Of a DNA stretch of 64,000 bases, positions 845 through 37,794 are shown piece after piece. The stretch is from an uncultured Acidobacteriota bacterium (lineage in GTDB: Bacteria > Acidobacteriota > Thermoanaerobaculia > Gp7-AA8). Where the stretch lies: contig CAWGHO010000003.1 in NCBI GenBank assembly GCA_963822445.1, positions 1,792,333 to 1,856,332 on the forward strand, read 5' to 3'. Both the position numbers and the translations under genes were made by a program. Within the stretch, counting starts at the first letter, position 1; each line of letters starts with the position of its first letter. The notes beneath the pieces are model-generated. The model did no database searches. It saw only the letters and a program-made list of their open reading frames with translations, and was not told the DNA's origin.

Positions 845-2395
845 ATGCGCATGCGCGATCAGGTCGCCCGCGTTCTCGAGGCGCGGACCGGCACTCTCGA
901 AGAAACGCCGTACGCCGTCCTCCTGGTCGCGCTCGCCGCGAGCGGCGCCGACGCCGTCCTCGAGCTTCGCCGCAACGTCCTCCAGAAGACGGTCATCTTC
1001 GACGCCGGCGCGCCCGTCGATTGCCGCTCCAACATCGCCACGGAGATCCTCGGCCGCTTCCTCGTCACCGCCGGCAAAGTGAGCGAGGCCGACGCCACCG
1101 CCGCGTTCGCCGTTGCCGCATCGCGCGGTGTGCCGCTCGGCGAGATCCTCATCGAGCGCAAGCTCCTCACGCCCACCGAGCTCTATCGCGCGCTCCAGCA
1201 GAACCTCGGCCGCAAGCTGCTCGAGCCCTTCAGCTGGACCGACGGCACCTGGTCCATCGCCGACAATCCCCTGCCGCTCGCGTCTTCTCTTCGGGTGAAG
1301 GTCCCGCAGTTACTGGTCACGGGCATTCAGAAAGTCGAGCCGCAGGAGAACGCGGACGAAGCGGCCGCGGGCGCGGAAGGCCTCCATCTCGCCATCACGC
1401 CCGATCCGCTTTTCGAGCTCGATGAGCTTCGCCTCAGCGCGGCGCAGCAGAAGGTCGTCGACGCCGCGCGCAATGCCTGGAAGCTCGACCAACTCCGCGC
1501 CACTCCGGGCATCGACACGGACGAGATGAATCGCACGCTGTACGCGCTGCTCCTCCTCGGGATCGTCGAGCCGACCGTGCAGCCTCGTCGCGAAGCGCCG
1601 CGATTCGAGATGGCGAATCCGTTCGCGTCCGCGGAGGAGGAGACGCCGATCGAGGTCTCGCTCGCTACGATCGAACCTGAGGCCGAGCCTGAGCCCGAGC
1701 CGGAGCCTGCTCCGCCCGCGCACGCATCCGCCGAAGAGGTCGTGTCGGCCTACCTCTCCTTCCGCCGCAAAGACGCCTTCGATCTGCTCGGGGTCGAGGA
1801 GACCGCGGGGCCGGTGCCGATCATCAAGGCGTACCTGGCCATGGTCGAGCGCTTCCTCCCCTCGCGCTTTCCGGAGAAGACGCCGGACGGTCTGCGCGAT
1901 AAAGCGCAGGAAGTTTTCCTCGCCGCCGCGCGCGCGTACGCGGAGCTCGCCGATCCCGCGCGGCGCGAGGCGCTCGTGAAGAAACGGGCGAAGCTGCGCG
2001 AGGAAGCGGAAGCCGCGGCGAAAGCCGGACCGGCGGCGATGATCGATCCCGAAGTGCTCTGGAAGAGCGGCGTGAACCTCGCCGCCGGCGGCAAACTGCG
2101 CGAGGCCCTCGGTTCGTTCGAGCTCGCCGCGCAGTGCGATGCGCAGAACGGAACGTATGCCGCCGAGGTGGCGTGGTGCCGTTATCGGTTGGGGAACACG
2201 CCGGCCGCGAATGCGATCAAGCTGGTGAAGAACGCGCTGCGCATCGATCCCAACGCCGGCGTCGCCTACCTCTACGCCGGCCAGCTCCAGGCAGTCCTCG
2301 GCAAGACCGTCGAGGCCCAGGGTTACCTGCAGCGCGCGGCGAGCCTGCTGCCGGACGATCCGCGTCCGATCGAAGCGGCGAAACGGGTGCGCTAG
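845..2395 (+). CDS. multidomain protein: two T2SS-E N-terminal (GspE-N/MshEN)-like domains, a J-domain-like segment, and C-terminal TPR repeats
   Basis: VPLGEILIERKLLTPTELYRALQQNLGRKLLEPFSW is typical of the GspE N-terminal domain; YLSFRRKDAFDLLGVEETAG...IKAYLAMVERFLPSRF resembles a DnaJ J-domain; TPR-like C-terminus. The ORF extends upstream to 242 but that part is antisense to tsaA, so the start was set at the first ATG after tsaA. Confidence 0.55.
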   Translation: MRMRDQVARVLEARTGTLEETPYAVLLVALAASGADAVLELRRNVLQKTVIFDAGAPVDCRSNIATEILGRFLVTAGKVSEADATAAFAVAASRGVPLGEILIERKLLTPTELYRALQQNLGRKLLEPFSWTDGTWSIADNPLPLASSLRVKVPQLLVTGIQKVEPQENADEAAAGAEGLHLAITPDPLFELDELRLSAAQQKVVDAARNAWKLDQLRATPGIDTDEMNRTLYALLLLGIVEPTVQPRREAPRFEMANPFASAEEETPIEVSLATIEPEAEPEPEPEPAPPAHASAEEVVSAYLSFRRKDAFDLLGVEETAGPVPIIKAYLAMVERFLPSRFPEKTPDGLRDKAQEVFLAAARAYAELADPARREALVKKRAKLREEAEAAAKAGPAAMIDPEVLWKSGVNLAAGGKLREALGSFELAAQCDAQNGTYAAEVAWCRYRLGNTPAANAIKLVKNALRIDPNAGVAYLYAGQLQAVLGKTVEAQGYLQRAASLLPDDPRPIEAAKRVR

Positions 2396-2536
2396 CAATC
2401 GGCGCGGCAGAGATCGCGCCTCAGGGGACCCGCGCGTGCACTCTGCGGAGCGACCAACGCTGCCGGGCGTCCCGGCTTGCCCCGCGCGCTCTTTGCATGT
2501 AAAAAGCGCGCGCGTAACTAGGAGCTGAAGAATCCA

Positions 2537-3919
2537 ATGGCCCAAGACGTACTGATGCCCCAGATGGGTGAGTCCATCGCCGAAGGAACCGTGTCGAAAT
2601 GGCTGAAGAAAGTCGGCGACACGGTCGAGCGCGATGAGCCGCTGCTCGAGATCTCTACCGACAAAGTCGACGCGGAGATCCCCTCGCCCGCTGCCGGCGT
2701 CCTCACCGAGATCCTGGCGAAGGAAGGCGACACCGTTCCGGTGAACGCCGTCGTCGCCCGAATCGGCGGCGCCGGTGAAAAAGCCGCGGAGGCTCCTGCC
2801 GCGCCCGAGCCAAAACCGGAAGACAAGACCGTCGAAAGACCCGTGCCGCCACCGGAGACGAACGACCAGCCCGCCGCGGAAGCGCCGCAGGCCACCGAGT
2901 CGACGCCGCGCGTGGAAAGCACGCGCACACCGGAACCGGCCGCTCGCGAAGCGGATGACGCCGAAGTCACGTCGCTCGATGAGCGACGCCGCACGAAGTC
3001 CTCGCCTCTCGTTCGCAAGATCGCCCAGGAAAACAACGTCGACATCTCCCAGATCCCCGGCACCGGCGTCTCCGGCCGCGTGACGAAGAACGACATCCTC
3101 GATTTCATCCAGCAGCCGAAACCCGCCGCGGCCGCCGCATCAGCGCCTGCTGCCGCTCCGCGTCAGGCCGAAGCGCCCGCACCGCAGGCTCGTGCGGCCG
3201 GTCCGCAGTTCGGCGAAGGCGAGAACGTCCGCCTCGAACCGCTCTCGGTCATGCGCAAGCGCATCGCGCATCACATGACCCAGTCGAAGCAGACCTCCGC
3301 CCACGTGCACACCGTGTTCGAGGTCGACTTCACCAACATCGACAAGCTCCGCCGCCGGCACAAAGACGCCTACGGCGAGCGCGGCGTGAAGCTCACCTTC
3401 ATGCCGTTCGTCGTCCAGGCCGTCATCGCCGGACTGCGCGAGTTTCCGATCCTCAACGCGTCGATGGACGAGTCCAACGTCATCTATCACCGCGAGCACA
3501 ACATCGGCATCGCCGTGGCCCTCGACTGGGGCCTGATCGTTCCCGTGCTCAAACATGCCGACGAGCTGAACGTCCTCGGCGCCGCCCGCGCCATTAACGA
3601 CCTCGGCGACCGTGCCCGCCAGAAAAAACTCTCCCCCGACGACGTGCAGGGCGGAACGTTCACCATCACCAACCCCGGCGTGTTCGGCGGTCTGTTCGGA
3701 CTGCCGATCATCAATCAGCCCCAGGTCGCGATCCTCGGCGTCGGCGGCATCAAGAAACGTCCGGTGGTGATCGAGAGCAAGGACGGCGACTCGATCGCCA
3801 TCCGCTCGATGTGCTACCTCTCGCTCGGGTTCGATCACCGCCTGATCGACGGCGCGGTCGCGGATCAGTTCATGGCGAGGGTGAAGCAGATCATCGAGGC
3901 CGGGCAGTTCACGATGTAA
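2537..3919 (+). CDS. dihydrolipoamide acyltransferase (E2 component of a 2-oxo-acid dehydrogenase complex), single lipoyl domain
   Basis: Lipoyl domain (MPQMGESIAEGTVSKWLKKVGDTVERDEPLLEISTDKVDAEIPSP), Ala/Pro-rich linker, E3-binding segment, catalytic domain with the DHRLIDGA motif; AGGAG RBS about 8 nt upstream of the ATG. Confidence 0.9.
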   Translation: MAQDVLMPQMGESIAEGTVSKWLKKVGDTVERDEPLLEISTDKVDAEIPSPAAGVLTEILAKEGDTVPVNAVVARIGGAGEKAAEAPAAPEPKPEDKTVERPVPPPETNDQPAAEAPQATESTPRVESTRTPEPAAREADDAEVTSLDERRRTKSSPLVRKIAQENNVDISQIPGTGVSGRVTKNDILDFIQQPKPAAAAASAPAAAPRQAEAPAPQARAAGPQFGEGENVRLEPLSVMRKRIAHHMTQSKQTSAHVHTVFEVDFTNIDKLRRRHKDAYGERGVKLTFMPFVVQAVIAGLREFPILNASMDESNVIYHREHNIGIAVALDWGLIVPVLKHADELNVLGAARAINDLGDRARQKKLSPDDVQGGTFTITNPGVFGGLFGLPIINQPQVAILGVGGIKKRPVVIESKDGDSIAIRSMCYLSLGFDHRLIDGAVADQFMARVKQIIEAGQFTM

Positions 3920-6719
3920 CGCCGGCCGCAGGCACCGTCCGTGCGGCCACCGGCACCGAATACAGCGTCGCCACCTTGTCCGAATCCGGCTCGAGCAGTT
4001 CCGGATAACGGATGCCGTGCAGCACCTGCACGTCGAAGATCTCCTGCACCGATCCTTCGAACTTCAGGAAGGCCACGATGTTCCCGCTGCGGACGTCGAT
4101 CACCCACACACCGCATGCGCGATCGGACGGCGCGAGCCGTTTCGCCAGCGGGATGCCTTCGAACACGCTCTCGCGGACCTGCGAGAGCCCGACGAATGCG
4201 TACGGACCAGCGAACGCAAGGCCGCGCGTGAATCCCGGAAGCTCCGCGACGACGTGACCGCGGCCTTCAGCGAGATCGACAGTCGACAGCGTTCCTTTTC
4301 CCGATTCCAGAATCCACATCCGTCCCGCGTACCAGCGCGGCGAGTGCGGCATCGAGAGGCCGGTGAGGACGACCGATCCCGAATCGATCTCCATCAGCAC
4401 GCCGCCGCTGGCTTTCTTCTCGCGCCAGCCGTCGCGCTGATCGGAGATGCCGAGGGCTGTGACGAAGCGGGGGCGGCCGTCGATCATTGCCAATCCGTTG
4501 AGGTGACAACGATCCTCGGCCGCGAGTGCCGTGATGAACGAAGGCCGCCAGCGCGGCACGAAACTGTGCGCGCCGTCGAGCGTGCACAACGTCGAGAAGC
4601 GCGTGTTGACCAGCCACAGCTCGCCGGCCGAGTCGTACGCGATCTCGTGAATGCGGATGTCGCCGGTGATGTGCGTGCCGCGCGGCGCGAAACAGGCGTC
4701 GTGTTTTCCCGCCGGCTCGAGCTTCGACGCGAACGTTCCGGCGTTGCGATACGTGACCACTTGTCGCGCCGTGCCGATCGACAGCGTCTCCGGTCCGACG
4801 GCCATCCCCATCGGACTCGGCGCCGCGACCAGATGCGTGTTCAGCACTCCGCCATCCGCGCGCACCACCACCACCCGCCCGCTCTGGTATGTCGAGACCA
4901 GCAGCGATGCGCCGAGGCTGGAGAGGATTTCCGGGAAGGAGCTCGTGTGGATGCTGCGGAAGGAGATCTCGCTCTTCGGTTCTTCGGGAGGAGGCAGTGC
5001 CGGAACGAGGCGCACGCGCTGCAACGGCTCGCGCGCGAAGACATCGCGGGCGCGATCGGCCGTTTCGCGAACGCGATCGAACACCGCGTCGATCTCCGGA
5101 CCGTTGCGCTCCAGCTTCTGGATGCCCGGCGGCGTGAGCGTGTGCTTCGAAAGCGGCAGCGGCGCGGTAAGCGGCGTGTCCCAGCCGAATCCCACGAACG
5201 TGCAGAGCCGCTCGATCTCCTTCTGCGGATCGGCGACGAGCCGGTCGTAGCTGGCGACGCACCATGAGTCAGCCGGCAGCGCTTCAAGGTCGTCGAGCAT
5301 GATCCGCGTGGCCGTCTCCCACTGATGGGCGACCACTTCGTTCAGCGGCTGCTCGACGACGTCCCTCCAACCGGGAACGAGCAGCAGCGACCACTTCTGC
5401 GCGGGATACGTGACGAAGCGGCCCGACCGCCAGGCGTCCAGCATGCTGCTGATCGTGGCCCGCGGATCGCGATAGAGATAGATGAAGAACGCGTCGGGAA
5501 ACACGGCTTTGAGAAACGGAATGCGCAGCGCGTTCTTGGGCGTCTTCTCGAGCATGCGCACGCGGTCCGGTAGGCGCATGTCCCCTTTGCGATCGCGCAA
5601 TGAGTCGAGAAAGCGGCGCTCCAGCTTGGCGATGACTTCCGGCGTCGCATCAGCGGCCGTGAGACGGTTCGACTCCCACTCCTTCGCCGCGGGATGGAGT
5701 GCCTCGATGCCTTCGATGATGCCGTGACTCTCGCCGCCCGGCGAGAACACGCGCGGCGCCCGGGCCAGCGTTTCGAACAGCAGACTCGATCCCGACCGCG
5801 GCGAGGAGACGATGAAAACGGGCCTGTCAAAACGCCGCAAGGCGACGTGCGGCGCCGCCGCGGGCTCGGGCTCGGCCAGATCAGGATTCAACGCCGCGTG
5901 CACGAACATGTGCCGGGCGATCGTCGCCGCACGCGCATTGCCGCTCGCCGAAAGGGCGCGATCGAATTCATCCAGCAGCGCCCGATACTTCGGCCACCCG
6001 CTCTTCCCCTCACCGTGCGCATGCCAGACCTGACGCCAGTCGTCGAGAAAACGGTCGACTTCCGCGCGCAACGCACCGTCGAGCAGCGGAACGAGCGAGG
6101 CTTGCTCGTCAGGGGACATGACTACCGGATGATTGCGAGACTCAAACTCGACCTCGGAACCCCGCAACCCCGAAACCCCGTCCCCCTCCACCATCCCCCA
6201 GAACTCCGGCGACCCCTTCGTATCGATCACCAGATGAATCCGCCGTGTCGGATTCGGATTGATCACGTTGTGCGTCTTCGACGTGTCGAAGATCCACGTT
6301 TCGCCCGCGGTCATGTGCAGCTCTTTGTCGCCGCAGAGGAAGCGCACCGCCGGATCGGTGATGACCGGCACGTGCACGCGCGCGCGCTGCGTCCAGTAGT
6401 AATTCATGTCCATGTGCGGCGTGGCCTCGGCATTTCCGTCGATGCGCATCAGCCGCGTGCGGCCGATCGGCGCGCGAAGCGACGCGAGCACTTCCTGGAT
6501 GTACGGACAGCGCGCGAGATGGGGCGTGGGATGCATCGCCCCCTTCACGCCGTCGTTCGACGGATCGCCACCGACGCTCACCAGCGGCAGCGCCCAGTTC
6601 CCGCGATGCCCCTCGGGATGCGGACGCCAGTCAGCCTCTTCGAACTGCGCGACCTCCATCGCCAGACGCGCGGCGTCGAAGGTCAGCGGAAGGCGAATGA
6701 ACTCAGTCGGGAGACGCAA
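3909..6719 (-). CDS. three-domain fusion: aspartyl/asparaginyl beta-hydroxylase-like (cupin), sulfotransferase, and an uncharacterised ~400-aa C-terminal domain (TIGR03032-like; beta-propeller-like)
   Basis: N-terminus HMDMNYYWTQ...HVPVITDP...TWIFDTSKTHNVIN resembles the Asp/Asn beta-hydroxylase family; middle FIVSSPRSGSSLLFETLA ... RDPRATISSMLDAW are PAPS-binding sulfotransferase motifs; the C-terminus (ILSSLGASLLVSTYQSGRVVVVRADGG...) looks like a conserved hypothetical family I recall co-occurring with sulfotransferases (tentative). Confidence 0.7.
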   Translation of the reverse strand: MRLPTEFIRLPLTFDAARLAMEVAQFEEADWRPHPEGHRGNWALPLVSVGGDPSNDGVKGAMHPTPHLARCPYIQEVLASLRAPIGRTRLMRIDGNAEATPHMDMNYYWTQRARVHVPVITDPAVRFLCGDKELHMTAGETWIFDTSKTHNVINPNPTRRIHLVIDTKGSPEFWGMVEGDGVSGLRGSEVEFESRNHPVVMSPDEQASLVPLLDGALRAEVDRFLDDWRQVWHAHGEGKSGWPKYRALLDEFDRALSASGNARAATIARHMFVHAALNPDLAEPEPAAAPHVALRRFDRPVFIVSSPRSGSSLLFETLARAPRVFSPGGESHGIIEGIEALHPAAKEWESNRLTAADATPEVIAKLERRFLDSLRDRKGDMRLPDRVRMLEKTPKNALRIPFLKAVFPDAFFIYLYRDPRATISSMLDAWRSGRFVTYPAQKWSLLLVPGWRDVVEQPLNEVVAHQWETATRIMLDDLEALPADSWCVASYDRLVADPQKEIERLCTFVGFGWDTPLTAPLPLSKHTLTPPGIQKLERNGPEIDAVFDRVRETADRARDVFAREPLQRVRLVPALPPPEEPKSEISFRSIHTSSFPEILSSLGASLLVSTYQSGRVVVVRADGGVLNTHLVAAPSPMGMAVGPETLSIGTARQVVTYRNAGTFASKLEPAGKHDACFAPRGTHITGDIRIHEIAYDSAGELWLVNTRFSTLCTLDGAHSFVPRWRPSFITALAAEDRCHLNGLAMIDGRPRFVTALGISDQRDGWREKKASGGVLMEIDSGSVVLTGLSMPHSPRWYAGRMWILESGKGTLSTVDLAEGRGHVVAELPGFTRGLAFAGPYAFVGLSQVRESVFEGIPLAKRLAPSDRACGVWVIDVRSGNIVAFLKFEGSVQEIFDVQVLHGIRYPELLEPDSDKVATLYSVPVAARTVPAAGVTS

Positions 6720-6782
6720 GCGGCTTATACTCGCACGAGTCTTCGCTCCAAAAAATCCGGCTTCGCGCTAAGAGGTAAATGT

Positions 6783-9700
6783 ATGCAAAAGCGGAAGAAA
6801 ATCGCCACGGGAGCGGCATTGGCGATGGGCGCGGTCCTCGCGCCGGAGGCGGTCGAAGCTGCAGTGATCACCGTCAACAGCACTGCCGATACCGCGGCGG
6901 TCGACGCGCAGTGCACTCTGCGCGAGGCCATCACCAACGCCAACGCCAACGCGGCAACCGAAGTCGATTGCGCGGCCGGCACGGGCCTCGACACGATCGA
7001 CTTCGCGCTCACCCTTCCGGCCACGATCACGCTGTCGGGCACTTCCCTGTCGATCGTCGATCCGCTGATCATCGACGGCCCCGGCCAGACCGATCTCACC
7101 ATCGACGCGAACGACGCCTCCCGGATCTTCGAGATTGCGGACGGCGACTCCGGCACGTCGATGACGGTCGAGATCAACGACCTCACGCTTGCCAACGGCA
7201 ACGACGCCACCGAATCGTTTCCCGGTGGCGGCGCGATCCTCAGCGCCGAAACTCTCGTCATCACCAACGTGACCTTTTCGGGCAACGACGGTGCTGCCGG
7301 CGGTGCGATCTATCTGTACTCCCCCTCGAATCCGAACCTGACCGTGACCGGCTCGACCTTCACCGGAAACACTTCGGCTGCCGACGGCGGCGCGATCCTG
7401 GCGGTGGGCGGCGACGTCACGATCACCGGCTCCACACTGACGCTCAACACCGCCCTCTGCTGCGGCGGCGCGATCAAAAAGATCGAAGGGGCCTTCACCC
7501 TCACCGATTCGACCGTCACCGGGAACTCCGCGACCATCGGCGGCGGCATCGCGCTGTACTACACGGACACGACGACCATCACCAACTCCACCATCAGCGG
7601 CAACGAGGCGCTCCTTTCCGGCGGCGGTCTCTATTTCTATGGGCCGGCCGGGCTGGTCACCATCGAGGATTCGGTCATCAGCGCGAACGAGGCGGCCTAC
7701 GGCGGCGGCGTTTGGCTTTCGTATGCGGGCGAGAGCCCGGTCGTCATCCGCGACACCGAGATCAGCGGCAATACCGCCACTGATTCGGCCGGCGGCTTGT
7801 ACCTCTACGACGTCGACGACGTCACCCTCGAACGGGTCCGCCTGATCAACAACACCGCCGACGCGTACGACGGCGGCGGAGCGCTCTGGGATGCCAAAGT
7901 CACCATCATCGAGTCGCAGATCAGCGGCAATCAGGCGCCGATCGTCGGCGGGTTGTACGTGGCTTATGGCAGCTACCTGTATCTGATCAACTCCACGGTC
8001 GCGAACAACACCGCCAGTACCGGTTCGGTCGGCGGTCTCGGAATCAACTTTTCCTTCGCGGCCATCGACGTCTCGACCATCTCCGGCAACAGCGCACCAG
8101 CCGGCGCCGCCGGAAACATCTTCAGCTACGGCTCAGGTCTGTACATCACCAACTCCATCGTCGCCAACGGAATCGCGTTAGCGGGGCCCGACCTCGTGAC
8201 CGCGACGTCGACCGTCGAGATCAACTACTCGCTGATCGAGGACACCGCCGGCGCCTCGTTCACCGGCTCGAACAACATCACCGGCGTCGATCCGCAACTT
8301 GGACCGCTGCAGAACAACGGCGGGCCGACCGAGACCGTGAAGCCGGCGCCGGCGAGCCCCGTCGTGAACGCGGGCGATCCCCTGTACACCACGCCGCCCA
8401 ACGACCAGCGCGGCTTCCCCCGGCCGGTCGGCATCGTCGACATGGGCGCGGTGGAGCTCAGTCCCGGTGTCCTCGACATCTCCGCGGCGAATGCCGTCGG
8501 AGAAGGCGCGGGCTTCATCACCATCACCGTGACCCGCACCGGCGGATCGGACGGCGCGGCCTCGGTGAACTACACGACCAACAGCGGCACCGCCACCTCC
8601 GGCGCCGACTTCACCGCGACCGCGGGCACGCTGAACTGGGCCGACGGAGACGCGGCGCCGAAGTCGTTCAACGTCAACATCACCGACGACCTCATCTTCG
8701 AGGGCAACGAGCAATTCACGGTCACCCTGAGCGGCGCGACCGTCGCGACGCTCGGCGCGGACACGGCGCTCATCACCATCACCGACAACGACGCCGCACC
8801 GACGATCTCCATCAACGACACCGGCAATACCGAGGGCTCGAACGTCGTCTTCAACGTCACCCTCTCCAATCCGACCACGCAGACGGTGACGGTCGACTTC
8901 GCGACCGCCGGCGTCACGGCCGCGTCGGGCGTCGACTTCACGGCGAACAGCGGCACGATCACCTTCAACCCGCTCGTCACCAGCCAGCCGATCACCATCG
9001 TCACCACGCAGGACGCGATCGACGAGCCGAACGAGACCTTCAACGTCGTGCTGACCAATCCCAACGCCAACGCGACGATCTTCGACGGCACCGGCGTCGG
9101 CACGATCACCGACGACGATCCCACGCCGACGATCTCCATCAACGACGCCGGGCAGACCGAGGGGACGAATATCGTTTTCCAGGTCACGTTGTCGGGGGCG
9201 AGCTCGGAGACGATCACCGTCGACTTCGCGACCGCCGCCGTCACCGCAACGTCAGGGACCGATTTCACCGCGAACAGCGGCACCATCACCTTCACTCCGG
9301 GCGATACGAGCGAGCAGATCACGGTTGTCACCGCGCAGGACGCGGTCGACGAGGCCAACGAGACCTTCAACGTCAACCTCACCAATCCCAGCGCCGGCGC
9401 AACGATTCTCGACGGTACGGGCGTGGGAACGATTGGCGATGACGATCCGTCGCCGACGATCTCCATCGGCGATTCGGGGGCCCTCGAGGGTGCGAACGTC
9501 GTGTTCAACGTCACGCTGTCCGCGCCGACCGAGCAGGTCGTCACCGTCGACTTCGCGACAGCCGGCAACACCGCGACGTCGGGCGTCGACTTCACGCCGA
9601 ACAGCGGCACGCTGACCTTCAACCCGCTCGTCACCAGTCAACAGATCACCGTCGCGACCAGTCCGGACGGGTTCGACGAGCCGAACGAGACCTTCAACGT

Positions 9701-10571
9701 CGTGCTCACCAATCCGAACGCAAACGCGGTCCTCCTCGACGACACCGCCATCGGCACGATCACCGACGATGACGGCGCGCCTGCGCTGAGCATCGACGAC
9801 GTCACGCTCGCCGAAGGGAACGCCGGCACGACCAACTTCGTCTTCAACGTCACCCTCGCGCCGGCGAGCGGACAGACAGTCACCGTCGATTACACGACCA
9901 GCGGCGGCGACGCCACGGCCGGCAGCGACTACACGCCGACGTCCGGTACGCTCACGTTCACGCCCGGCGACACCAGCGAGACCATCACCGTAACGGTAGC
10001 CGGCGACACGAGCATCGAGCCGACCGAGACGTTCAACGTCGTGCTCTCGAATGCGCCGCTCGCTGCAATCACGGACGCCACCGGTCAGGGCACGATCACC
10101 AACGACGACGTCGCGCCGGTCGCTGACCTGAGCCTGACCAAAGCCGTCGTCGGCAGCGGACCGTTCGTCGTCGGCCAGAACGCGACGTTCACGATCACGC
10201 TTTCGAATGCCGGTCCCGACGCGGCCGCGAATGCGACCGTCACCGACATCCTCCCCGCCGGAACGACGTTCGTCTCGGCGACGCCAACCAGCGGAACGTG
10301 CAACGGAACGACGACCGTGATCTGCAACGTGGGAACGCTCGCCAACGGCGCGAACGCGACTGTCACGCTGACTGTGCAACTCAACACGCCCGGGACCATC
10401 ACCAACACGGCCACGGGCGCCTCCGAAGCCGGCGACCTCTCCCCCGCCCTCGGCACCGCCGCGATCAACGTGACCGCCGCCGCCGAAGGCGTTGCCATTC
10501 CGACGCTTTCGCAGTGGATGCTGATTGCCCTCGCCGCAGCCCTGGCTTGTTTAGGAGTGCGGCGGCCCTAG
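6783..10571 (+). CDS. giant secreted protein: signal peptide, CSLREA (choice-of-anchor Q) motif, right-handed parallel beta-helix repeats, 5 Calx-beta domains, DUF11-like domain, C-terminal IPTL-CTERM-type sorting signal
   Basis: Signal peptide MQKRKKIATGAALAMGAVLAPEAVEA; AAGAGG RBS upstream of the ATG at 6783. CTLREAITNANAN motif; GGAIY/GGAIL beta-helix repeats; five VDFATAG..ATSG.DFT..SGT.TF....TS..ITV...D...EPNETFNV repeats (Calx-beta); DUF11-like segment LSLTKAVVGSGPFVVGQNATFTITLSNAGPDAA; C-terminus IPTLSQWMLIALAAALACLGVRRP. The ORF extends upstream to 5694, but that part is antisense to the preceding gene. Confidence 0.8.
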   Translation: MQKRKKIATGAALAMGAVLAPEAVEAAVITVNSTADTAAVDAQCTLREAITNANANAATEVDCAAGTGLDTIDFALTLPATITLSGTSLSIVDPLIIDGPGQTDLTIDANDASRIFEIADGDSGTSMTVEINDLTLANGNDATESFPGGGAILSAETLVITNVTFSGNDGAAGGAIYLYSPSNPNLTVTGSTFTGNTSAADGGAILAVGGDVTITGSTLTLNTALCCGGAIKKIEGAFTLTDSTVTGNSATIGGGIALYYTDTTTITNSTISGNEALLSGGGLYFYGPAGLVTIEDSVISANEAAYGGGVWLSYAGESPVVIRDTEISGNTATDSAGGLYLYDVDDVTLERVRLINNTADAYDGGGALWDAKVTIIESQISGNQAPIVGGLYVAYGSYLYLINSTVANNTASTGSVGGLGINFSFAAIDVSTISGNSAPAGAAGNIFSYGSGLYITNSIVANGIALAGPDLVTATSTVEINYSLIEDTAGASFTGSNNITGVDPQLGPLQNNGGPTETVKPAPASPVVNAGDPLYTTPPNDQRGFPRPVGIVDMGAVELSPGVLDISAANAVGEGAGFITITVTRTGGSDGAASVNYTTNSGTATSGADFTATAGTLNWADGDAAPKSFNVNITDDLIFEGNEQFTVTLSGATVATLGADTALITITDNDAAPTISINDTGNTEGSNVVFNVTLSNPTTQTVTVDFATAGVTAASGVDFTANSGTITFNPLVTSQPITIVTTQDAIDEPNETFNVVLTNPNANATIFDGTGVGTITDDDPTPTISINDAGQTEGTNIVFQVTLSGASSETITVDFATAAVTATSGTDFTANSGTITFTPGDTSEQITVVTAQDAVDEANETFNVNLTNPSAGATILDGTGVGTIGDDDPSPTISIGDSGALEGANVVFNVTLSAPTEQVVTVDFATAGNTATSGVDFTPNSGTLTFNPLVTSQQITVATSPDGFDEPNETFNVVLTNPNANAVLLDDTAIGTITDDDGAPALSIDDVTLAEGNAGTTNFVFNVTLAPASGQTVTVDYTTSGGDATAGSDYTPTSGTLTFTPGDTSETITVTVAGDTSIEPTETFNVVLSNAPLAAITDATGQGTITNDDVAPVADLSLTKAVVGSGPFVVGQNATFTITLSNAGPDAAANATVTDILPAGTTFVSATPTSGTCNGTTTVICNVGTLANGANATVTLTVQLNTPGTITNTATGASEAGDLSPALGTAAINVTAAAEGVAIPTLSQWMLIALAAALACLGVRRP

Positions 10572-14459: not shown

Positions 14460-15557
14460 TTGCCGAAGCCCACCATGCGTCCCTGCGAAATCCATCGTCT
14501 CCATCTCGTCACCTACGAAAACGGGATGAAGCTCCAGCAGAAACTGGTCGAGCTGCGGCAGCGCGAGGAGATCGCCGATCAACTGCTCCTCCTCGAACAT
14601 CCACCAGTGATCACCCTCGGCCGCGGCGGCGACACCACCAACCTGCTCGCGCCACCCCACGTCCTCGCCGAGCAGCGCGTGCGCTTCTTCGAGACCACCC
14701 GCGGCGGCGACATCACCTACCACGGCCCCGGCCAGATCGTCGGCTACCCCATCCTCCACCTCGGCGAAGGCAACCGCGACGTCCGCAAGTACGTCACCAA
14801 ACTCGAGGAAGTGCTCATCCGCACCGTCGCCGAATACGGCATCACCGCGGAGCGCTTCGAAGGCAAGCGCGGGATCTGGGTCGGCTCGAACAAGATCGCC
14901 GCGATCGGCGTCCGCATCGCGCGCTGGGTCACGTCCCATGGCTGGGCGCTCAACGTCAGCACGAACCTCGATCACTTCCGTCTGATCACCCCCTGCGGCA
15001 TCCGCGGCATGGGCGTCACCTCGATCGAACGGGAGATCGGCCGCCCCGTTCCTCTCGACGAAGTGCGCGAGACTCTCGCGGCGAAGTTCGCAGAGATCTT
15101 CGAGCGCGAGCTAGTGGCGCGTCCCGAAACGATCCGCCTGGTGAAGGTGCTCGTGCACGATGGCGATCGCGTGCTGCTCCTGCATCGCCGCGCCGAGCGG
15201 GGAAACTTCTGGCAACCCATCACCGGCTCGATCGAGGAAGGCGAGCTGCCGGTGGAGACCGCACGGCGGGAGCTGATCGAAGAGACCGGTCATCCCGGCG
15301 ATCCGCGCGCTCTGGATCTTCGCCAGTCGTTCCTCATCGAGTCCGCGTACCTCTCCGCGAAGTATTCAGGGCCGATCATCGCCAGCGAAGTCGGCTTCGC
15401 GGCGACGCTCGACTCCAGCCTGCCGATCGCGCTCGATGAGCAGGAACACGATGGGCATGGCTGGTTCACGTTTGCCGAGGCTTATGAAAAGATCCGGTGG
15501 ACCGACGATCGGGAGGCTTTGGAACGGTTGGAAGCCTCGCTGCCGGTGACCGCATGA
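14460..15557 (+). CDS. lipB: octanoyltransferase LipB fused to a C-terminal NUDIX hydrolase domain
   Basis: LipB core (HPPVITLGRGG, YHGPGQIVGYPI, RGIWVGSNKIAAIGVRI); C-terminal Nudix box GSIEEGELPVETARRELIEETG. Confidence 0.85.
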   Translation: MPKPTMRPCEIHRLHLVTYENGMKLQQKLVELRQREEIADQLLLLEHPPVITLGRGGDTTNLLAPPHVLAEQRVRFFETTRGGDITYHGPGQIVGYPILHLGEGNRDVRKYVTKLEEVLIRTVAEYGITAERFEGKRGIWVGSNKIAAIGVRIARWVTSHGWALNVSTNLDHFRLITPCGIRGMGVTSIEREIGRPVPLDEVRETLAAKFAEIFERELVARPETIRLVKVLVHDGDRVLLLHRRAERGNFWQPITGSIEEGELPVETARRELIEETGHPGDPRALDLRQSFLIESAYLSAKYSGPIIASEVGFAATLDSSLPIALDEQEHDGHGWFTFAEAYEKIRWTDDREALERLEASLPVTA

Positions 15558-20226: not shown

Positions 20227-23061
20227 TTATTCGCGGCGAAAGATCATCAGCCGGACATTGGAGGGCAGCGCGTTGTTTTCGGAATCGCGCGCCTTGATGA
20301 ACGCACGGCCCGACGCCACGCCCACACGGGAGTACACCGCTCCCCCTCCGCTCGAGAGAGTGAAGCTGTCGGTCACGCCATTCGCCGGATCCCTGGTATC
20401 CAGCTCATACGCGCACGAGCAACCCGCGCCCGGGTCGTAGTCGAGATTCTGGAAGATCTCGCGGAACTTCCAGCTCGGTTGCGTGAACTGCGCCGCCACC
20501 CCCGTCGTAGCGTCGTCGCTGTACGTCGCGAGCGCGAAGTCGGCGATCCACGGTTCCGCATCCGCTCCGAGATTCGTCTCGAGATTGGTCAGGCCGGTCT
20601 GTTGTGTATTGACCAATCCCTGCCAGAACGAAGTTTCTGTACTGCCGCGGCGATCCGACGCGTAGCGGAGGAACGCCCACGCCTCACCGCGCGTAGCGTC
20701 ATCGTCATCCTCCTGGGTAAGGCCGCTGGCATGCGGCGACAACAGCCAGTCACGCAACCGTGCGAAGTTCGGCTCTCCATATCGGAAGAACGCGTCGACC
20801 GCGCCGCCCACCTGGCCGACGCCGAGATTCGATCGCGGTGAAAGCGCAGCGGCCTGGTAGAACACCAGTTCCTCCGCGACCAGCGCCAGCCCTTCGTCGA
20901 GCCAGACCTCTTCGAGCTCGACGAACGGCGTGTTGACATGCATGCGCCGCGACGCGTTGAGCAGATGCTCGAGCTCGTGCGCGAGCGTGCGGAGCGTCCT
21001 CTCCTTCACGAAGGAAACGCTCCGCGCGTTTCCGTTGATCGAGCCGGCCGGATCGGCCATCAGCGTGTAAATCATCTCGCCGACGTTGCTCGTCGTACAG
21101 CTCGCCGCGGGAGACAGATCGCGCGAGAAGAAGAAGCCGTCGACGAGAGGCGCGCTCGTCGGGGTGAGCTGATTGACGGCTGATGTGTAGAACGCGATGA
21201 CACGCAGGTTGCTGTCGATGTCCGCCGGTTGTCCGAACGCCGTGGTCACCGCGGGCCAGATCGTGTCGTCGAACTCGGCGGCGATCTCCTGGTAGTCCGC
21301 GGTCGTCAGCCCGTTCGCAATGACCGGAGATCCGCCGCTGACCTCCTGCATGACGATGATGTGCGTACCGACGACCTCCACGCGCGCCTGCCGGTTGTCG
21401 AACGTGCTGCAGGAGTTGTCGGTCTCCACGTTGATCGTCATCAGCGCGCCGACCGAAGGGACGCCGGGCGTGATCGCATTCCACTGCACTCCGTCATGGT
21501 GGGTCTGGAGACGCTTCTTCATCTCCCGGCGCTCGCGCACGCGGAGTTGCGACTCGAACGCGCGGTCCTCGACCAGGCTCCGGCTCGCATCAGGAGAGGG
21601 GCGGAGCCGGCTCGCCAGTGGCAGCGGCGGACCACTCACCGCCACGATTCCGGTCGCCGTCAACTCGACACCGACGGAACTTTCAGAAGATGCATTGACC
21701 GGCACGATGGTGTACTCGGCAGTGCTCGAGAGACAGAGCGTCGGCGGCACCGGCGTCGCCGACGTGAAGACGCCGCCTACAGACAGCGAGACGCATGTCA
21801 TCTGGGTCACTGTGATCGAAAGCGTTTGCACGGCCGTCCCGCCGGAACTGCTTGCGGTCACGTCGATGACGTAGACGTTGTTCCCGTCCGAGTCCGCGGG
21901 AGCAAGAAAATCAGGTGGGACGCTGAACGAGAGCGCGCCGTTGCCGGCGATCGACAGGTCGCCCTGATCCGCGCCGCCGGTGATCGTGAAGGTGACCGGA
22001 TCGCCTTCGGGATCGGGGGCGACGGCGGTATGGAACACGCCGTCCGCCTGTTCCGTCGTGCTGATTGCACTCGAGCTCGTGAACGACGGCCCCTCGTTGA
22101 CGTTCGTCACCGTCACCGCGATGGCCTCGGCAGCTACGTTTCCCTGTCCATCGCTGGCGGCGACGATGACCTCGTACACGTTGTTGGCACCGCCGTCGGT
22201 TGGCGATTCGAAGTTCGGCGCCGCGTTGAACGTCAGCGCACCCACCGTGGGATGGATCGAGAACTTCGCCGCGTCCGCGCCGCCGAAGATCGAATAGGTG
22301 CGCGGATTCGCTTCCGGGTCCGTGGTCGTCACGGTCATCACCGCCGTGGCGTTCTCGGCGGCGGCCGGCACCGTCGATGATGTAAAGACAGGGGGGCCGT
22401 TCAACGGCGCACCCGTCGTCGACGCCTGCCGCGCACCGCTTCTCAGCTCGTGGACGTGCGCGGACTTGACCGTCGTGACGCCGGCCGTGAGCGAGCTGTC
22501 GGTGAACGTGATCGTGGCCATGCCCAATGCGGTCCGGGCAGCGTTCAACGCCGAACGCAGCTCCGAAATGTGAACGGCGCGGATCGTCGTCGAGGTCGTC
22601 AGCGTCGGATCGGTGAACGACGTAGCCCCAAGTCCGCCGAACACGCGCATCGCGTTCACGTCGGTGCGAAGCTGCGAAATGTGGGTGGTTTTTACGGGTG
22701 TCGCGCCGGCGACGAGAGGATCGTCGGTGAATGAGAACGTGCCGGCGTAAACGGCCGTGCTGCTCGAGCCTCCTGCCACCCGCACCTGGTAGCGGTAGGT
22801 CGTGTTCGCCGCCGCGGTCGTATCAGTGAATCTCGTCGACGAGGAGGAACCGATCTGTACGGGCAGGCCGCCGGTCGACCGGAGCACCTCGTAGGTCTGC
22901 GCGCCGGCAACGGCGTTCCATGTGATCGTCACCGACGTCGTGCTGTTCACCGTCGCCTGCAGGTTGGCCGGAGGGGTGTCGGTGACGGCGGTCGGGTGAG
23001 CTAGCGCCCCTGTCGCCGCGAGGGCAAACGAAAAGACGACGACGAACCGGCGGCGCCCCAT
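20227..23061 (-). CDS. secreted zinc metalloprotease (HExxH) with N-terminal FN3-like domain, three ~45-aa TFTD...HISELR repeats and two cadherin-like domains
   Basis: Signal peptide MGRRRFVVVFSFALAATGALA; cadherin-like NVYEVIVAASDGQGNVAAEAIAVTVTNVNEGPSF; C-terminal TLAHELEHLLN ... WLDEGLA. Confidence 0.7.
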   Translation of the reverse strand: MGRRRFVVVFSFALAATGALAHPTAVTDTPPANLQATVNSTTSVTITWNAVAGAQTYEVLRSTGGLPVQIGSSSSTRFTDTTAAANTTYRYQVRVAGGSSSTAVYAGTFSFTDDPLVAGATPVKTTHISQLRTDVNAMRVFGGLGATSFTDPTLTTSTTIRAVHISELRSALNAARTALGMATITFTDSSLTAGVTTVKSAHVHELRSGARQASTTGAPLNGPPVFTSSTVPAAAENATAVMTVTTTDPEANPRTYSIFGGADAAKFSIHPTVGALTFNAAPNFESPTDGGANNVYEVIVAASDGQGNVAAEAIAVTVTNVNEGPSFTSSSAISTTEQADGVFHTAVAPDPEGDPVTFTITGGADQGDLSIAGNGALSFSVPPDFLAPADSDGNNVYVIDVTASSSGGTAVQTLSITVTQMTCVSLSVGGVFTSATPVPPTLCLSSTAEYTIVPVNASSESSVGVELTATGIVAVSGPPLPLASRLRPSPDASRSLVEDRAFESQLRVRERREMKKRLQTHHDGVQWNAITPGVPSVGALMTINVETDNSCSTFDNRQARVEVVGTHIIVMQEVSGGSPVIANGLTTADYQEIAAEFDDTIWPAVTTAFGQPADIDSNLRVIAFYTSAVNQLTPTSAPLVDGFFFSRDLSPAASCTTSNVGEMIYTLMADPAGSINGNARSVSFVKERTLRTLAHELEHLLNASRRMHVNTPFVELEEVWLDEGLALVAEELVFYQAAALSPRSNLGVGQVGGAVDAFFRYGEPNFARLRDWLLSPHASGLTQEDDDDATRGEAWAFLRYASDRRGSTETSFWQGLVNTQQTGLTNLETNLGADAEPWIADFALATYSDDATTGVAAQFTQPSWKFREIFQNLDYDPGAGCSCAYELDTRDPANGVTDSFTLSSGGGAVYSRVGVASGRAFIKARDSENNALPSNVRLMIFRRE

Positions 23062-30918: not shown

Positions 30919-33444
30919 CTACTTGAGATGATGCAGGTTCGCCTGGACCGCGGCCAGCGCGTAATCGCCACGGGTGATGCCGGACTGGGGCTGGAACACC
31001 GCCTTGATCTTCGGCAACAGCGGGTTGGTGTTGTCGACGTAGAACGTCGCGTTGAGGATGCCGAGATCGAGGGCCAGCTGCACGTAGCCGCGGAGCTCGG
31101 GCCGGATCCGGTTCTCGTCGGAGAGCACGATGCGCGCGCCTTCGTACGGCGCTGTCACCGAGCCAGTGGTCTCCTCCGCTGTCTTCTGCAGGCCGAGCGC
31201 CTGGATGAGCGCATACGCGAGCTCCTGGCGCTCCATGTCGGCGTTCGGCTTGAACATGCCGCGGCTGCGGTCGACGAGCGAGACCGGCTTCGCATCGTGA
31301 TTGAGATCGAAGAGCAGCGTGCCGTTCGCGGTGACCATCTGCGCGAAGACTTCCGCGGCCGGGTTGTCGTTGGTCAGGTCCGCGAACAGCCGCCGGCCGA
31401 ACAGGTCCAGGCGTTGGCGGATGCCGAAACCGGAGACCAGATACTCGGCGGCGGCAATGCGATCGATCTTGCGGTCCGGACTGAACGTTCCGTTCGTCAA
31501 CGAATCGACGAGCCGGTTGCTGGCGGCAAACTCGATCACGCCGCGCATCGGGTGCGCGGCAATGTCGTTGAGTCCTGTGAAGCCTTGCGTGATGTAGGTC
31601 CGCACCGTGACGTTGGCGGTTCCCGGCCCGGCGATGCCGTTCGTCAGCTGCAGCGGATCCACCGCGACTCCCGATACTCCGCCGATGCCGCGCATGGTGA
31701 CGGTCCAGCGGCCCGGCTTGCCCGGCGCCGCCGCCGAGACGATCGGCGCGAGCACCGGCTGCGCGATCCCCGAGCCATACGACTTGCCGTCCGGATCGAT
31801 GAGCAGGACCGCGCAGGTACACGGGCTGCCCGTCGGCTGCGACCACCGCGCCGTCACCACCGCGACCTCGGGACCGATCTCAAACTCTGCGAATCCGGTC
31901 TGCCCGCGCGGCGCCGGCATGAACGCGATGCTGTAGGTATTGACCACCGGGCTTTCGACGACGGTGGCGTTCGCGTTGAAACCGCCGGGACGCGTGAGGT
32001 TGTTGGCGAGGCCGAAATCGGTGCGCCTGCCGAGAGCCATCGCCACGGCCGCCTCGACGTTCGCGTGACCGGCGCCGACTTCCCACGGCTCGTAGCCGGA
32101 CATGTTCGTCGCCGTCGCTTTGAGAATCGACTTCACTTCACGCCAGCCGAGGTTCGGGTTCGCTTCGAGGATGATGGCCACCAGGCCGGCCACGTGCGGC
32201 GCGGCCATCGAGGTGCCCGTCTTGATCGAGTAGAACGGAGCGAGCGTCGGGCCGAGGACTTCGAGATCGGTCTGGAAGCCGATGTTGCCGGTGGCGTCGG
32301 CGGTGGCGAGCGCGCGCGGCGCCGCGATGGACGTGCCCGGAGCGACGACCGTCGGACGATCCTCCACCGTGAACGTCTCGCTGCCGATCGTCACCTGATA
32401 GACGCCGCCTGAGATCTGACCGCGCGACGACGACGGCGCGAGCGTCCCCTTCTTCGTGCCGTTGCCCGCCAGGATGACCCACGGCGACTTCTTGTACGGG
32501 CCGGTGATCGTGTCCGGGCCGGAGCCGCTGTTGCCGGCGGAGAAGACGGTGATCACGCCGACGTCCGCGAGCAGCTTGGAGGCGATGACCGTCGGATCGT
32601 TGGGGTTGAACGGCTGGCCGATCGTGCTCGGACCGCCGAACGAATTGGTGATGATGCGGATGTTGTATCGCGCGTGGTTGGCGAGCGCGTAGTCGAACGC
32701 ACCTGCCGTGTTCAGGATGGAGATCGCCGCGCCGGAGCCGTAGCCGATGATGTGCGCTCCTCGCGCTGCTCCCGCGTAAACGCCGTTGGACATCGTTCCG
32801 AGACCGGCGGCGATGCCGGCGACGTGGGTTCCGTGCGAGCCGGCGACGTCGGTGTTGGGCACGTTCTCGATGTTGAGGAACGGCTCCAGCGTGCCGGCGT
32901 TGACCGGGCCGCCGGCGTGTCCGAGGACGTTCTGGACGACCTTCGTGCCGAAGAGGAGGTCGGGATGGGTACCGTCGACCCCGGAGTCATTGACGAGGAT
33001 GCCGATGCCGCGGCCTGTGAATGGGAGGCCGACCGCCGTCCGCAGCTGCTGGTTCGCGGCGAGCTGATCGACGGAGCTGAGCGTGCGCGCCTGCGACATC
33101 TCGTACTCGAGCCGGTCGTTGAGCCAGACCGAGCGCACGTCCGGCATCGCGGCGATAGCTTGCACCTGCGCGGGCGTGGCCAGCACGCCGGCCATCGGAA
33201 GTCTCTGAAAATAAAGGCCTCCCACGCCGATCGTGCGGAGTGCGTCGAGCTGGGCCGCGGTGACCGGTCCGCTGCCGTGGTAGGTGACGATGACCTCAAT
33301 GAGGTCGGCCGGCGCCGCCGATTGCAGCCGCTGGACGAGCGTCGGGCCGAGATCGGCCTTCGCCGTGGCGGAAAGCGCAGGCAAGAGGCTGAGAAGGACG
33401 AGGGCGATGAGGCCGGCACGAAGCCGCGAGGTTGAAGCTGCCAT
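30919..33444 (-). CDS. secreted subtilisin-like serine protease (S8) with C-terminal SLH-like domains
   Basis: Signal peptide; catalytic D (VNDSGVD), H (HGTHVAG), S (GTSMAAPHVAG); C-terminal repeats resembling S-layer-homology domains; AGGAGGA RBS. Confidence 0.85.
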   Translation of the reverse strand: MAASTSRLRAGLIALVLLSLLPALSATAKADLGPTLVQRLQSAAPADLIEVIVTYHGSGPVTAAQLDALRTIGVGGLYFQRLPMAGVLATPAQVQAIAAMPDVRSVWLNDRLEYEMSQARTLSSVDQLAANQQLRTAVGLPFTGRGIGILVNDSGVDGTHPDLLFGTKVVQNVLGHAGGPVNAGTLEPFLNIENVPNTDVAGSHGTHVAGIAAGLGTMSNGVYAGAARGAHIIGYGSGAAISILNTAGAFDYALANHARYNIRIITNSFGGPSTIGQPFNPNDPTVIASKLLADVGVITVFSAGNSGSGPDTITGPYKKSPWVILAGNGTKKGTLAPSSSRGQISGGVYQVTIGSETFTVEDRPTVVAPGTSIAAPRALATADATGNIGFQTDLEVLGPTLAPFYSIKTGTSMAAPHVAGLVAIILEANPNLGWREVKSILKATATNMSGYEPWEVGAGHANVEAAVAMALGRRTDFGLANNLTRPGGFNANATVVESPVVNTYSIAFMPAPRGQTGFAEFEIGPEVAVVTARWSQPTGSPCTCAVLLIDPDGKSYGSGIAQPVLAPIVSAAAPGKPGRWTVTMRGIGGVSGVAVDPLQLTNGIAGPGTANVTVRTYITQGFTGLNDIAAHPMRGVIEFAASNRLVDSLTNGTFSPDRKIDRIAAAEYLVSGFGIRQRLDLFGRRLFADLTNDNPAAEVFAQMVTANGTLLFDLNHDAKPVSLVDRSRGMFKPNADMERQELAYALIQALGLQKTAEETTGSVTAPYEGARIVLSDENRIRPELRGYVQLALDLGILNATFYVDNTNPLLPKIKAVFQPQSGITRGDYALAAVQANLHHLK

Positions 33445-37602: not shown

Positions 37603-37794
37603 GAATCCTCCACCAAAGTTGGTTCGAGAACGGAGTAAGAGGGACTGCGAGCCGGGGAAGAAAACCGAACGTTGGTGGCCGCGCGCATGCAGCTGCGGAG
37701 AGAGGCCGCGAGCCGAATGAGCGTCACCCTGCACACCCGAAGTAGCGATGAAGAGAGGCGCCAATAGTACCAGTGACGGAAGGAAATCGTGCTG

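Follow-up and report, generated by a model that had tools for sequence, protein, structure and literature searches.

In TibC/Aah-type modification of bacterial surface proteins, the reaction takes place in the cytoplasm, on the β-helical passenger domain, and the genes for the enzyme and its client are adjacent. The heptosyltransferases of the TibC/Aah type are GT9-like, GT9 being the family of the lipopolysaccharide heptosyltransferases, and they act on proteins. TibC itself is a heptosyltransferase that works on the autotransporters TibA and AIDA-I (PMC4358343). As to sulfation, RaxST has been reported to sulfate RaxX and Omp1X (PMC4892823, PMC6637879). Here we consider a gene pair in a 64,000-nucleotide stretch of DNA from an uncultured Acidobacteriota bacterium (contig CAWGHO010000003.1, positions 1,792,333 to 1,856,332), the whole of which we call the window. 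One gene encodes a 936-residue, three-domain enzyme that ends in a DUF4915/TIGR03032 domain, and the other, transcribed divergently, encodes a 1262-residue surface protein, the partner. That the two genes stand together in this genome and in many unrelated bacteria suggests that a surface protein is chemically decorated, by an as yet undescribed system, before it is exported.

We regard TibC and Aah, with TibA and AIDA-I, as the best precedent that comparison offers for the pair. As in the modules of the bacterial autotransporter heptosyltransferases (BAHT: TibC, Aah), the gene for a putative cytoplasmic modifier adjoins the gene for a secreted β-helix protein in a two-gene module, and the pairing is conserved across genomes. 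In addition, a sister architecture of DUF4915 carries a TPR and a GT9-like domain. The differences are as follows. The window enzyme has no glycosyltransferase domain but instead has an Fe/2-oxoglutarate (2OG) oxygenase, a sulfotransferase of the type that uses 3′-phosphoadenosine-5′-phosphosulfate (PAPS) and a β-propeller. The partner lacks an autotransporter domain and is a CSLREA/choice-of-anchor-Q protein with IPTL-CTERM. Finally, for the window pair modification of the client is a proposal. In its mode of action the pair may resemble a BAHT module, yet it is not a member of that group.

The three-domain enzyme and the surface protein

The enzyme gene lies at 3909..6719 on the minus strand, with a TTG start at 6719 and a stop codon at 3909-3911. 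Searches with the hidden Markov models (HMMs) of Pfam and NCBIfam resolve its open reading frame (ORF) into a PF05118 cupin, a PF13469 sulfotransferase and the DUF4915/TIGR03032 domain, each above its curated cut-off. The original prediction, made by a model from the letters of the DNA, had proposed just such a fusion of a hydroxylase-like cupin, a PAPS-type sulfotransferase and an uncharacterised domain, and all three assignments hold; both ORFs, and the 63-bp divergent spacing between them, are also where it had placed them. In an alignment of 29 full-length homologues (58-85% identity), the consensus N-terminus MRLDTEFIRLPL begins exactly at TTG 6719, so that the database version of the protein, P0001 (916 residues, starting at M21), looks N-terminally truncated. 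Read by eye, with no predictor, the translation has no visible signal-peptide-like N-terminal stretch. Residues H102, D104, H150, R160, H162, P307, R308, G310, E330, H332, R417, R420 and S425 are invariant in the alignment; with these motifs intact, the enzyme domains look catalytically competent. The same three-domain architecture was present in 120 of 120 clusters among the matches listed in a homologue search. The named clusters are mostly Thermoanaerobaculia or Acidobacteriota, and one is that of the cultured Acidovorax strains Leaf76 (enzyme WP_082486137.1), Leaf78 (enzyme WP_082516848.1), LjRoot117 and LjRoot194.

The N-terminal segment (residues 1-185; 6165..6719, minus strand) is assigned as an Fe(II)/2OG dioxygenase cupin by PF05118 and by the homologue alignment. 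PF05118, Asp_Arg_Hydrox, scores 52.1 bits against a cut-off of 22.6 over residues 65-167. The nearest solved relatives are the L-proline cis-4-hydroxylase 4p7w (E = 5e-9), the proline 3-hydroxylase 1e5r and the β-hydroxylase 7v4f. H102-x-D104 and H150 are candidate iron ligands, and R160 is a candidate 2OG-binding arginine; the four invariant columns align with the His, Asp, His and Arg of 4p7w and 1e5r. The original prediction had called the cupin Asp/Asn β-hydroxylase-like. The family assignment stands, with PF05118 above threshold, but AspH proper does not: searching the PDB by sequence with the cupin does not bring up human AspH, even at E ≤ 1, and a Pfam scan of the partner gives no match to an EGF family. 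Since the client lacks EGF domains and the closest solved relatives are proline hydroxylases, the Asp/Asn β-hydroxylase assignment was rejected. The cupin is, by these matches, an Fe/2OG hydroxylase, and we leave its substrate residue unspecified. A conserved linker follows (residues 186-295; 5835..6164, minus strand), which has no Pfam match and travels with the cupin. A custom HMM of the linker matches every cupin-bearing homologue, including a protein of Wenzhouxiangella marina that consists of cupin, linker and DUF4915, without a sulfotransferase.

The PAPS-type sulfotransferase (residues 296-560; 5040..5834, minus strand) matches PF13469, Sulfotransfer_3, over residues 300-514 with 97.7 bits against a cut-off of 27, and PF00685 with 30.7 bits. 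The 5′-phosphosulfate-binding (5′-PSB) loop SSPRSGSS is at residues 305-312 and the 3′-phosphate-binding (3′-PB) motif YRDPRATISS at residues 416-425; PRSGSS and YRDPRATISS align to the motifs of TPST1 and of the CurM sulfotransferase (CurM ST), and they do not vary among the 29 homologues. When the sulfotransferase profile is compared with solved structures, the matches are CurM ST 4gbm (2e-11), the 4gox ‘Polyketide synthase’ chain (2e-9) and TPST1/2 (2e-9). E330-S-H332 is a candidate catalytic motif, which aligns with E-L-H of CurM ST. In the profile alignment, E330 does not coincide with the second Glu of GEE in TPST, the catalytic Glu99 of TPST2, but stands immediately before it. The match to NoeE (‘nodulation protein’) is weak, at 29 bits against a cut-off of 500.

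These matches invite comparison with two kinds of sulfotransferase. With RaxST/RaxX and TPST1/2 the pair would share the PAPS-dependent sulfation of a ribosomally made, exported polypeptide, and the TPST1/2 profile match of 2e-9 has the 5′-PSB and 3′-PB motifs aligned. It differs in that the proposed client is a large β-helix surface protein and not a short peptide, in that E-x-H fits CurM ST better than the GEE of TPST, and in the fusion of the sulfotransferase to an oxygenase and a propeller. The CurM type provides the best solved sequence matches, together with the E-x-H alignment just described. CurM ST sulfates a secondary hydroxyl made by an enzyme, which fits a ‘hydroxylate, then sulfate’ logic. 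Here, too, there is a difference. CurM ST works within a polyketide synthase (PKS) module on a β-hydroxyacyl chain bound to an acyl carrier protein (ACP), and a thioesterase follows, whereas ACP, PKS and thioesterase are all absent here.

The C-terminal DUF4915/TIGR03032 domain (residues 585-920; 3960..4967, minus strand) scores 403.8 bits with PF16261 (cut-off 35; residues 594-909) and 412.4 bits with TIGR03032 (cut-off 251.5; residues 591-918). Its predicted structure is a six-bladed β-propeller. In a comparison of 87 domains that covers every architecture, 59 positions reach 97% conservation or more, and near-invariant residues include T610-YQ, H691, D736-RCHLNG, M790-PHSPR, R832, R849 and E893. 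In a strand map of the model, three conserved His residues each open the inner strand of a blade, the three blades being consecutive; that position is where a propeller usually has its active or metal site. Because His, Arg, Asp and Cys residues are near-invariant in the modelled propeller, DUF4915 is probably itself catalytic. Peptidylglycine α-amidating monooxygenase, which joins the PHM hydroxylase to the six-bladed propeller lyase PAL, offers a parallel, with about 11% identity to DUF4915; PAL ranks no higher than some 20 other propellers. Moreover, the PHM hydroxylase is copper-dependent, whereas that of the window enzyme is of the Fe/2OG-dependent type, and most DUF4915 proteins have no fused hydroxylase.

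DUF4915 is found in five architectures: alone (about 360-390 residues), with a sulfotransferase, with cupin and linker, with all three N-terminal segments, and with a C-terminal TPR and GT9-like extension. The GT9-like call is a Pfam score at threshold (22.0-22.2 bits against 22), and when the C-terminal extension of one such protein was searched against PDB sequences, only TPR proteins came back. A DUF4915 profile run against 1.84 billion representative proteins gave 5,659 matches at E ≤ 1e-3 (clusters at 50% identity), and every architecture size class is present among the best 150 of them. The N-termini of the stand-alone proteins are short and hydrophilic, and a signal peptide is lacking. 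Tandem duplicates also occur: sulfotransferase plus DUF4915 is present twice in locus L039, 44-4325(+), and DUF4915 twice in L069, 1458-3541(+). In the literature searched, we found no mention of DUF4915 or TIGR03032.

The gene for the Sec-exported partner (6783..10571, plus strand) is preceded by an AAGAGG ribosome-binding site. All features of the partner lie on the plus strand. The predicted signal peptide, residues 1-26 (6783..6860), reads MQKRKKIATGAALAMGAVLAPEAVEA and is followed by A, with predicted cleavage after VEA; it was read from the sequence and is always present in the partner homologues. Next come a CSLREA cap and a right-handed parallel β-helix with ‘SGNxA...GGG[ILV][YF]xY’ rungs (6864..8282), of which the N-terminal cap itself is residues 29-54 (6867-6944; CSLREA_Nterm, TIGR04214, 31 bits against 25). 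The choice-of-anchor-Q domain, residues 503-559 (DPQLGPLQNNGGPT...DQRGFPR...DMGAVE; 8289..8459), scores 67.9 bits with NF041518 against 25. Beyond it are variable modules: five Calx-beta domains (8478..10115; PF03160, 250 bits in five stretches, with boundaries set by self-search) and a DUF11 domain (10125..10445; PF01345, 92.4 bits; TIGR01451). The protein ends in an IPTL-CTERM sorting signal (IPTLSQWMLIALAAALACLGVRRP; 10494..10565; PF18203, 30.3 bits against 20.8; TIGR04174, 26.1 against 20.5).

A surface protein dominated by Calx-beta and DUF11 modules had been described from the letters alone, and the five Calx-beta domains, DUF11 and IPTL-CTERM are confirmed. The part conserved among partners is another one, namely the CSLREA/β-helix/choice-of-anchor-Q core and not the Calx-beta/DUF11/IPTL tail. 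This core consists of the signal peptide, the pattern AATFTV..D..SLR[EQD]A..AN..G.DTI.F, the ‘SGN[TS]A..GGG’ rungs and the choice-of-anchor-Q domain, with the conserved pattern DPQLGPL.NNGGPT.T...DQRG.PR...D.GAVE. The choice-of-anchor-Q domain was found in six of six homologous partners scanned, and the Acidovorax partner, an IPTL-CTERM protein of 515 residues, has no Calx-beta match. A fold search with the partner returned Vag8, pertactin, EtpA and RbtA interleaved with epimerases, lyases and tailspikes, an order that suits an adhesin and a glycan-active enzyme alike. From Rhombotarget A (RbtA, TIGR04212) the partner differs in its score, 39.2 bits against an equivalog cut-off of 295, and in carrying IPTL-CTERM and not GlyGly-CTERM. 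Across residues 120-500 of the helix, the invariant columns in 28 partner homologues are Gly, Asn and Thr only, with no invariant acid, base or His, which argues against the partner being a glycan-cleaving enzyme and against a conserved catalytic groove.

Partners vary in form. Several homologues, for example at L006 7741-9876(-), L009 7720-9888(-) and L010 7595-9796(-), have an IPTL-like motif and a transmembrane helix in mid-protein, followed by a conserved tail of about 130 residues. They give sub-cut-off matches (17-31 bits against 45) to NF033207, ‘midcut-by-XrtH’, and their sequences may point to an exosortase-type cleavage in mid-protein instead of a C-terminal signal. Two giant partners follow stand-alone DUF4915 genes: that of L046, 1976-8638(+), has nine core-HMM matches, consistent with concatenated β-helix units, and that of L037, 11066-21013(+), has at least 3,316 residues and runs past the end of the locus.

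Linkage of DUF4915 to the β-helix core

We built HMMs of the partner core and of each of the four enzyme segments and ran them on the six-frame ORFs of 92 loci, 80 of which had been supplied by a metagenome scan with the DUF4915 alignment as its seed. A partner-type gene lies within 1.5 kb of the three-domain enzyme in 14 of 17 non-redundant loci, or 14 of the 16 that are informative. Among these 14 loci, which include Acidobacteriota and cultured Acidovorax, the partner is divergent and upstream in 11, downstream on the same strand in two and convergent in one. Six look-ups of genomic context show the enzyme divergent to a secreted β-helix/choice-of-anchor-Q protein of 515-2,355 residues, across a gap of about 85-220 bp, and tblastn finds the same divergent arrangement in L002. 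The other neighbours of the pair vary from locus to locus wherever they were examined; genes for a glycosyltransferase, UbiA or DegT lie close by in some of the loci.

The link also holds in the reverse direction. When the search started from partner-core homologues at 32-36% identity, a DUF4915 enzyme was found within about 1 kb in three of three informative loci. In L093, a three-domain gene stands divergent to partner P0136, about 180 bp away; this enzyme gene, 2873-5840(-), is frameshifted, in about 10 pieces, and is either a pseudogene or the product of long-read assembly errors. In L095, a divergent three-domain gene is beside the partner. In L094, from the cultured gammaproteobacterium Wenzhouxiangella marina (JACHIC010000005.1, 1158-14475), three tandem partners adjoin the cupin-linker-DUF4915 protein. 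The same locus has a separate gene for a TPR plus Sulfotransfer_3 protein, an MFS transporter gene and an Exo_endo_phos gene, and its sulfotransferase may act in trans. Searches in both directions show the fusion enzyme paired with surface proteins of this class in genomes other than this one, which is the test that the original prediction was to pass.

The association reaches beyond the three-domain enzymes. Partner-type genes adjoin DUF4915 in all five architecture classes, even where the hydroxylase or the sulfotransferase is missing, and a stand-alone DUF4915 gene typically precedes the partner gene on the same strand, at a distance of 170-380 bp. Thus, the constant link is that of DUF4915 to the β-helix core. 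In L016, a 461-residue ORF, 1941-3326(+), lies between the partner gene and the stand-alone DUF4915 gene; its marginal AMP-binding match (31.1 bits against 29.9) could be an additional tailoring activity.

Could the adjacency be coincidental, or reflect shared regulation only, with no biochemical link? Two fusion-enzyme loci have no partner, and the intergenic regions of seven loci show no shared motif by eye, as would be expected on that explanation. Against it, a core-type ORF is present within 3 kb of DUF4915 in 44 of 88 loci (328 kb scanned), whereas the background more than 3 kb from DUF4915 is about 4-6 such ORFs in 406 kb; the enrichment over local background is about 13-fold. The 64-kb window itself contains one core-type ORF only, the adjacent copy. 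Furthermore, the linkage is kept across Acidobacteriota, Betaproteobacteria and Gammaproteobacteria, in three gene orders and in both search directions. We find coincidence very hard to credit, and the enzyme and its partner are very probably functionally coupled.

A functional link need not be a catalytic one. DUF4915 might be a non-catalytic cytoplasmic chaperone, export-competence factor or regulator for an aggregation-prone β-helix precursor, with the fused hydroxylase and sulfotransferase acting elsewhere or on the enzyme itself. Such a role would suit the top structural neighbours of the propeller, which are ligand-binding YWTD and NHL propellers, and the stand-alone genes that adjoin partner genes without any tailoring domain. 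The near-invariant positions at the inner-strand starts, among them three His, several Arg, Asp and a Cys, nevertheless resemble an active or metal site more than a binding surface. The repeated, independent fusions to different tailoring enzymes are likewise most simply explained by a propeller that brings them to a shared client. We therefore think it quite improbable that DUF4915 is only a helper of this kind.

Proposed modification before export

Our proposal is that the two genes would form a self-contained, horizontally mobile modifier-and-client module, as follows. The 936-residue protein would be a cytoplasmic tailoring enzyme using Fe(II)/2OG and PAPS; a cytoplasmic location is suggested because the protein has no signal peptide and needs cytoplasmic co-substrates. 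The DUF4915 propeller would confer client specificity for the CSLREA/β-helix/choice-of-anchor-Q core and would probably catalyse a step as well. In the clade to which the window enzyme belongs, the fused dioxygenase of the Fe/2OG type would hydroxylate the client, and the sulfotransferase would add sulfate to the new hydroxyl, or to exposed Tyr, Ser or Thr residues of the helix rungs. All of this would happen to the precursor in the cytoplasm, ahead of Sec export and IPTL-CTERM sorting. Our confidence differs from part to part. That a cytoplasmic enzyme modifies the adjacent β-helix partner before export strikes us as an evenly balanced proposition, and we are equally divided on whether the partner is the direct substrate. 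Hydroxylation plus O-sulfation as the chemistry is put forward tentatively, at somewhat less than even confidence. As regards the original prediction of a dedicated modification enzyme for the neighbouring surface protein, a dedicated functional pairing is supported by the HMM thresholds and the co-occurrence, its Asp/Asn/Thr-rich modules are not the conserved part of the partner, and the substrate role, the hydroxylation and the sulfation are what we infer.

Several observations count against this proposal. Modification of the partner is itself putative. The three-domain enzymes of L001 and L013 have no adjacent partner, with flanks of at least 2.7 kb on both sides; a partner-like protein, P0170, is probably encoded on the same 1,979,381-bp contig as the L001 orphan enzyme. 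A partner is also lacking at roughly one in four of the stand-alone DUF4915 loci that are informative. The nearest solved relatives of the cupin, proline 3- and 4-hydroxylases, hydroxylate free amino acids and not proteins, and CurM ST, to which the sulfotransferase is closest among solved structures, works on an acyl chain bound to an ACP. Secreted polysaccharide lyases and epimerases typically have β-helix folds like the partner’s as well. Modification of a Sec substrate would require it to be still unfolded or only partly folded. Lastly, the comparison of partners yielded no target motif that could be identified with confidence.

Some of these points would suit an enzyme whose product is not a protein: it might synthesise or tailor, for instance, a glycan, lipid or amino-acid derivative, sulfated or hydroxylated, that the secreted partner binds, anchors to or processes outside the cell. 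The two genes would then still be linked in function, but the partner would be no substrate. Hydroxylation of free proline by the closest cupin relatives would fit, as would CurM ST as the best solved sulfotransferase match, the weak NoeE match, the fusion of DUF4915 to a GT9-like glycosyltransferase in other lineages, the resemblance of the partner fold to alginate epimerases, polysaccharide lyases and phage depolymerases, and the glycosyltransferase, UbiA and DegT genes near some loci. On the other hand, no conserved glycan or lipid biosynthesis or export gene surrounds the pair, which is a two-gene module in varying contexts, and the partner helix lacks a conserved catalytic acid, base or His. 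The GT9 fusion fits a protein substrate equally well, since TibC and Aah are GT9-like and yet act on proteins. We consider a non-protein product unlikely, if worth keeping in view.

Another possibility gives the propeller the last step. The cupin would hydroxylate a β-helix side chain, the CurM-like sulfotransferase would make a sulfate ester of it (or act on a rung Tyr), and a metallo-propeller would then eliminate, cleave or cross-link. DUF4915 would on this view be a new class of enzyme that matures CSLREA β-helix proteins, with sulfate, hydroxyl or sugar add-ons according to lineage. Such an ‘install, activate, convert’ scheme would be analogous to PHM/PAL or to the pairing of CurM ST with its thioesterase; the likeness to PAL is limited as described above, and we hold the scheme to be decidedly unlikely.

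If, as we propose, the partner is modified in the cytoplasm, the target is probably in its N-terminal part of about 560 residues, because the Calx-beta/DUF11/IPTL tail is variable and Calx-beta is absent in Acidovorax. The Calx-beta/DUF11 tail was rejected as the primary target, as it is not conserved among partners. We compared the partners of enzymes with cupin and sulfotransferase (n = 14) with those of stand-alone DUF4915 (n = 29). The rung motif GG[GA]x[YFW]xY occurs 28 times, in 11 of the 14, in the first group and twice, in 2 of the 29, in the second, but the two groups are phylogenetically distinct and 3 of the 14 have no such motif. Tyr occupies rung position +4 in 41% of cases in the first group against 16% in the second, where +3 is usually Asn. 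Partners of the sulfotransferase enzymes have rungs of the form GGG[ILV][YF][LF]Y, often with Asp next. In the window partner, Tyr makes up 3.5% of the core and 0.4% of the Calx-beta/DUF11 tail. The pattern is compatible with a sulfated tyrosine ladder on the rungs, a lead only, given that the contrast is confounded by phylogeny and is not universal.

Surroundings of the pair and wider meaning

The divergent intergenic region common to both genes is 63 bp long (6720..6782); homologous loci have 85-222 bp in the same place. A promoter and terminator scan of 6500-7000 gave no σ70 consensus match or promoter-like site, and Rfam and tRNA scans gave nothing near the gene pair. On the minus strand, GAGTATAAGCCGC (6720-6740) precedes the TTG start of the enzyme gene. 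GAGTATAA or GTAGTATA is also present in the intergenic regions of L006, L009 and L010, at a variable distance from the start, and GAGTATAA/GTAGTATA might be a -10-like element.

The genes that flank the pair are unrelated to it. A 2-oxoacid dehydrogenase E2 gene (2537-3919, plus strand) is convergent with the enzyme gene and overlaps its 3′ end by 11 bp, and a DUF1028 gene comes after the surface-protein gene. About 10 kb off, at 14460-15557(+), a gene unusually joins the catalytic domain of a lipoate-protein ligase (LplA-B_cat) to a NUDIX hydrolase domain. A 944-residue ORF at 20227-23061(-), with no Pfam match, contains a predicted tRNA-Val on the same strand (22702-22785) and is probably spurious in sequence of 65% GC. 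The window encodes three more large, apparently extracytoplasmic proteins, all on the minus strand: a 2,108-residue FG-GAP/Ig-like/MBG protein (57656-63982), an S8 subtilase with SLH (30919-33444) and a Sortilin/BNR-repeat protein (34186-37764). None matches the partner-core HMM.

What is of a known kind here is the dedicated cytoplasmic modifier of a β-helix surface protein; what is new is the proposed chemistry and DUF4915 as the hub domain. DUF4915 seems to lie at the centre of a modular set of cytoplasmic tailoring enzymes that are tied to a specific class of secreted β-helix protein, and the large DUF4915/TIGR03032 family thereby gains a concrete, testable context. The linkage and domain matches make a strong genomic lead on this uncharacterised family. 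It had been said that sulfated bacterial surface proteins are nearly undescribed, which is fair; the precedent found is RaxST acting on RaxX and Omp1X (PMC6637879, PMC4892823). The module is present in workable cultured strains, namely the plant-associated Acidovorax sp. Leaf76, Leaf78, LjRoot117 and LjRoot194, and Wenzhouxiangella marina, so the question is directly open to experiment. Should the partner prove to be the substrate, an adhesin-like surface protein of bacteria would for the first time be seen to undergo enzymatic hydroxylation and/or O-sulfation, and the principle of modifying in the cytoplasm and then exporting would reach beyond autotransporter glycosylation. Sulfated surface proteins could alter charge, adhesion, mineral or metal binding and host recognition.

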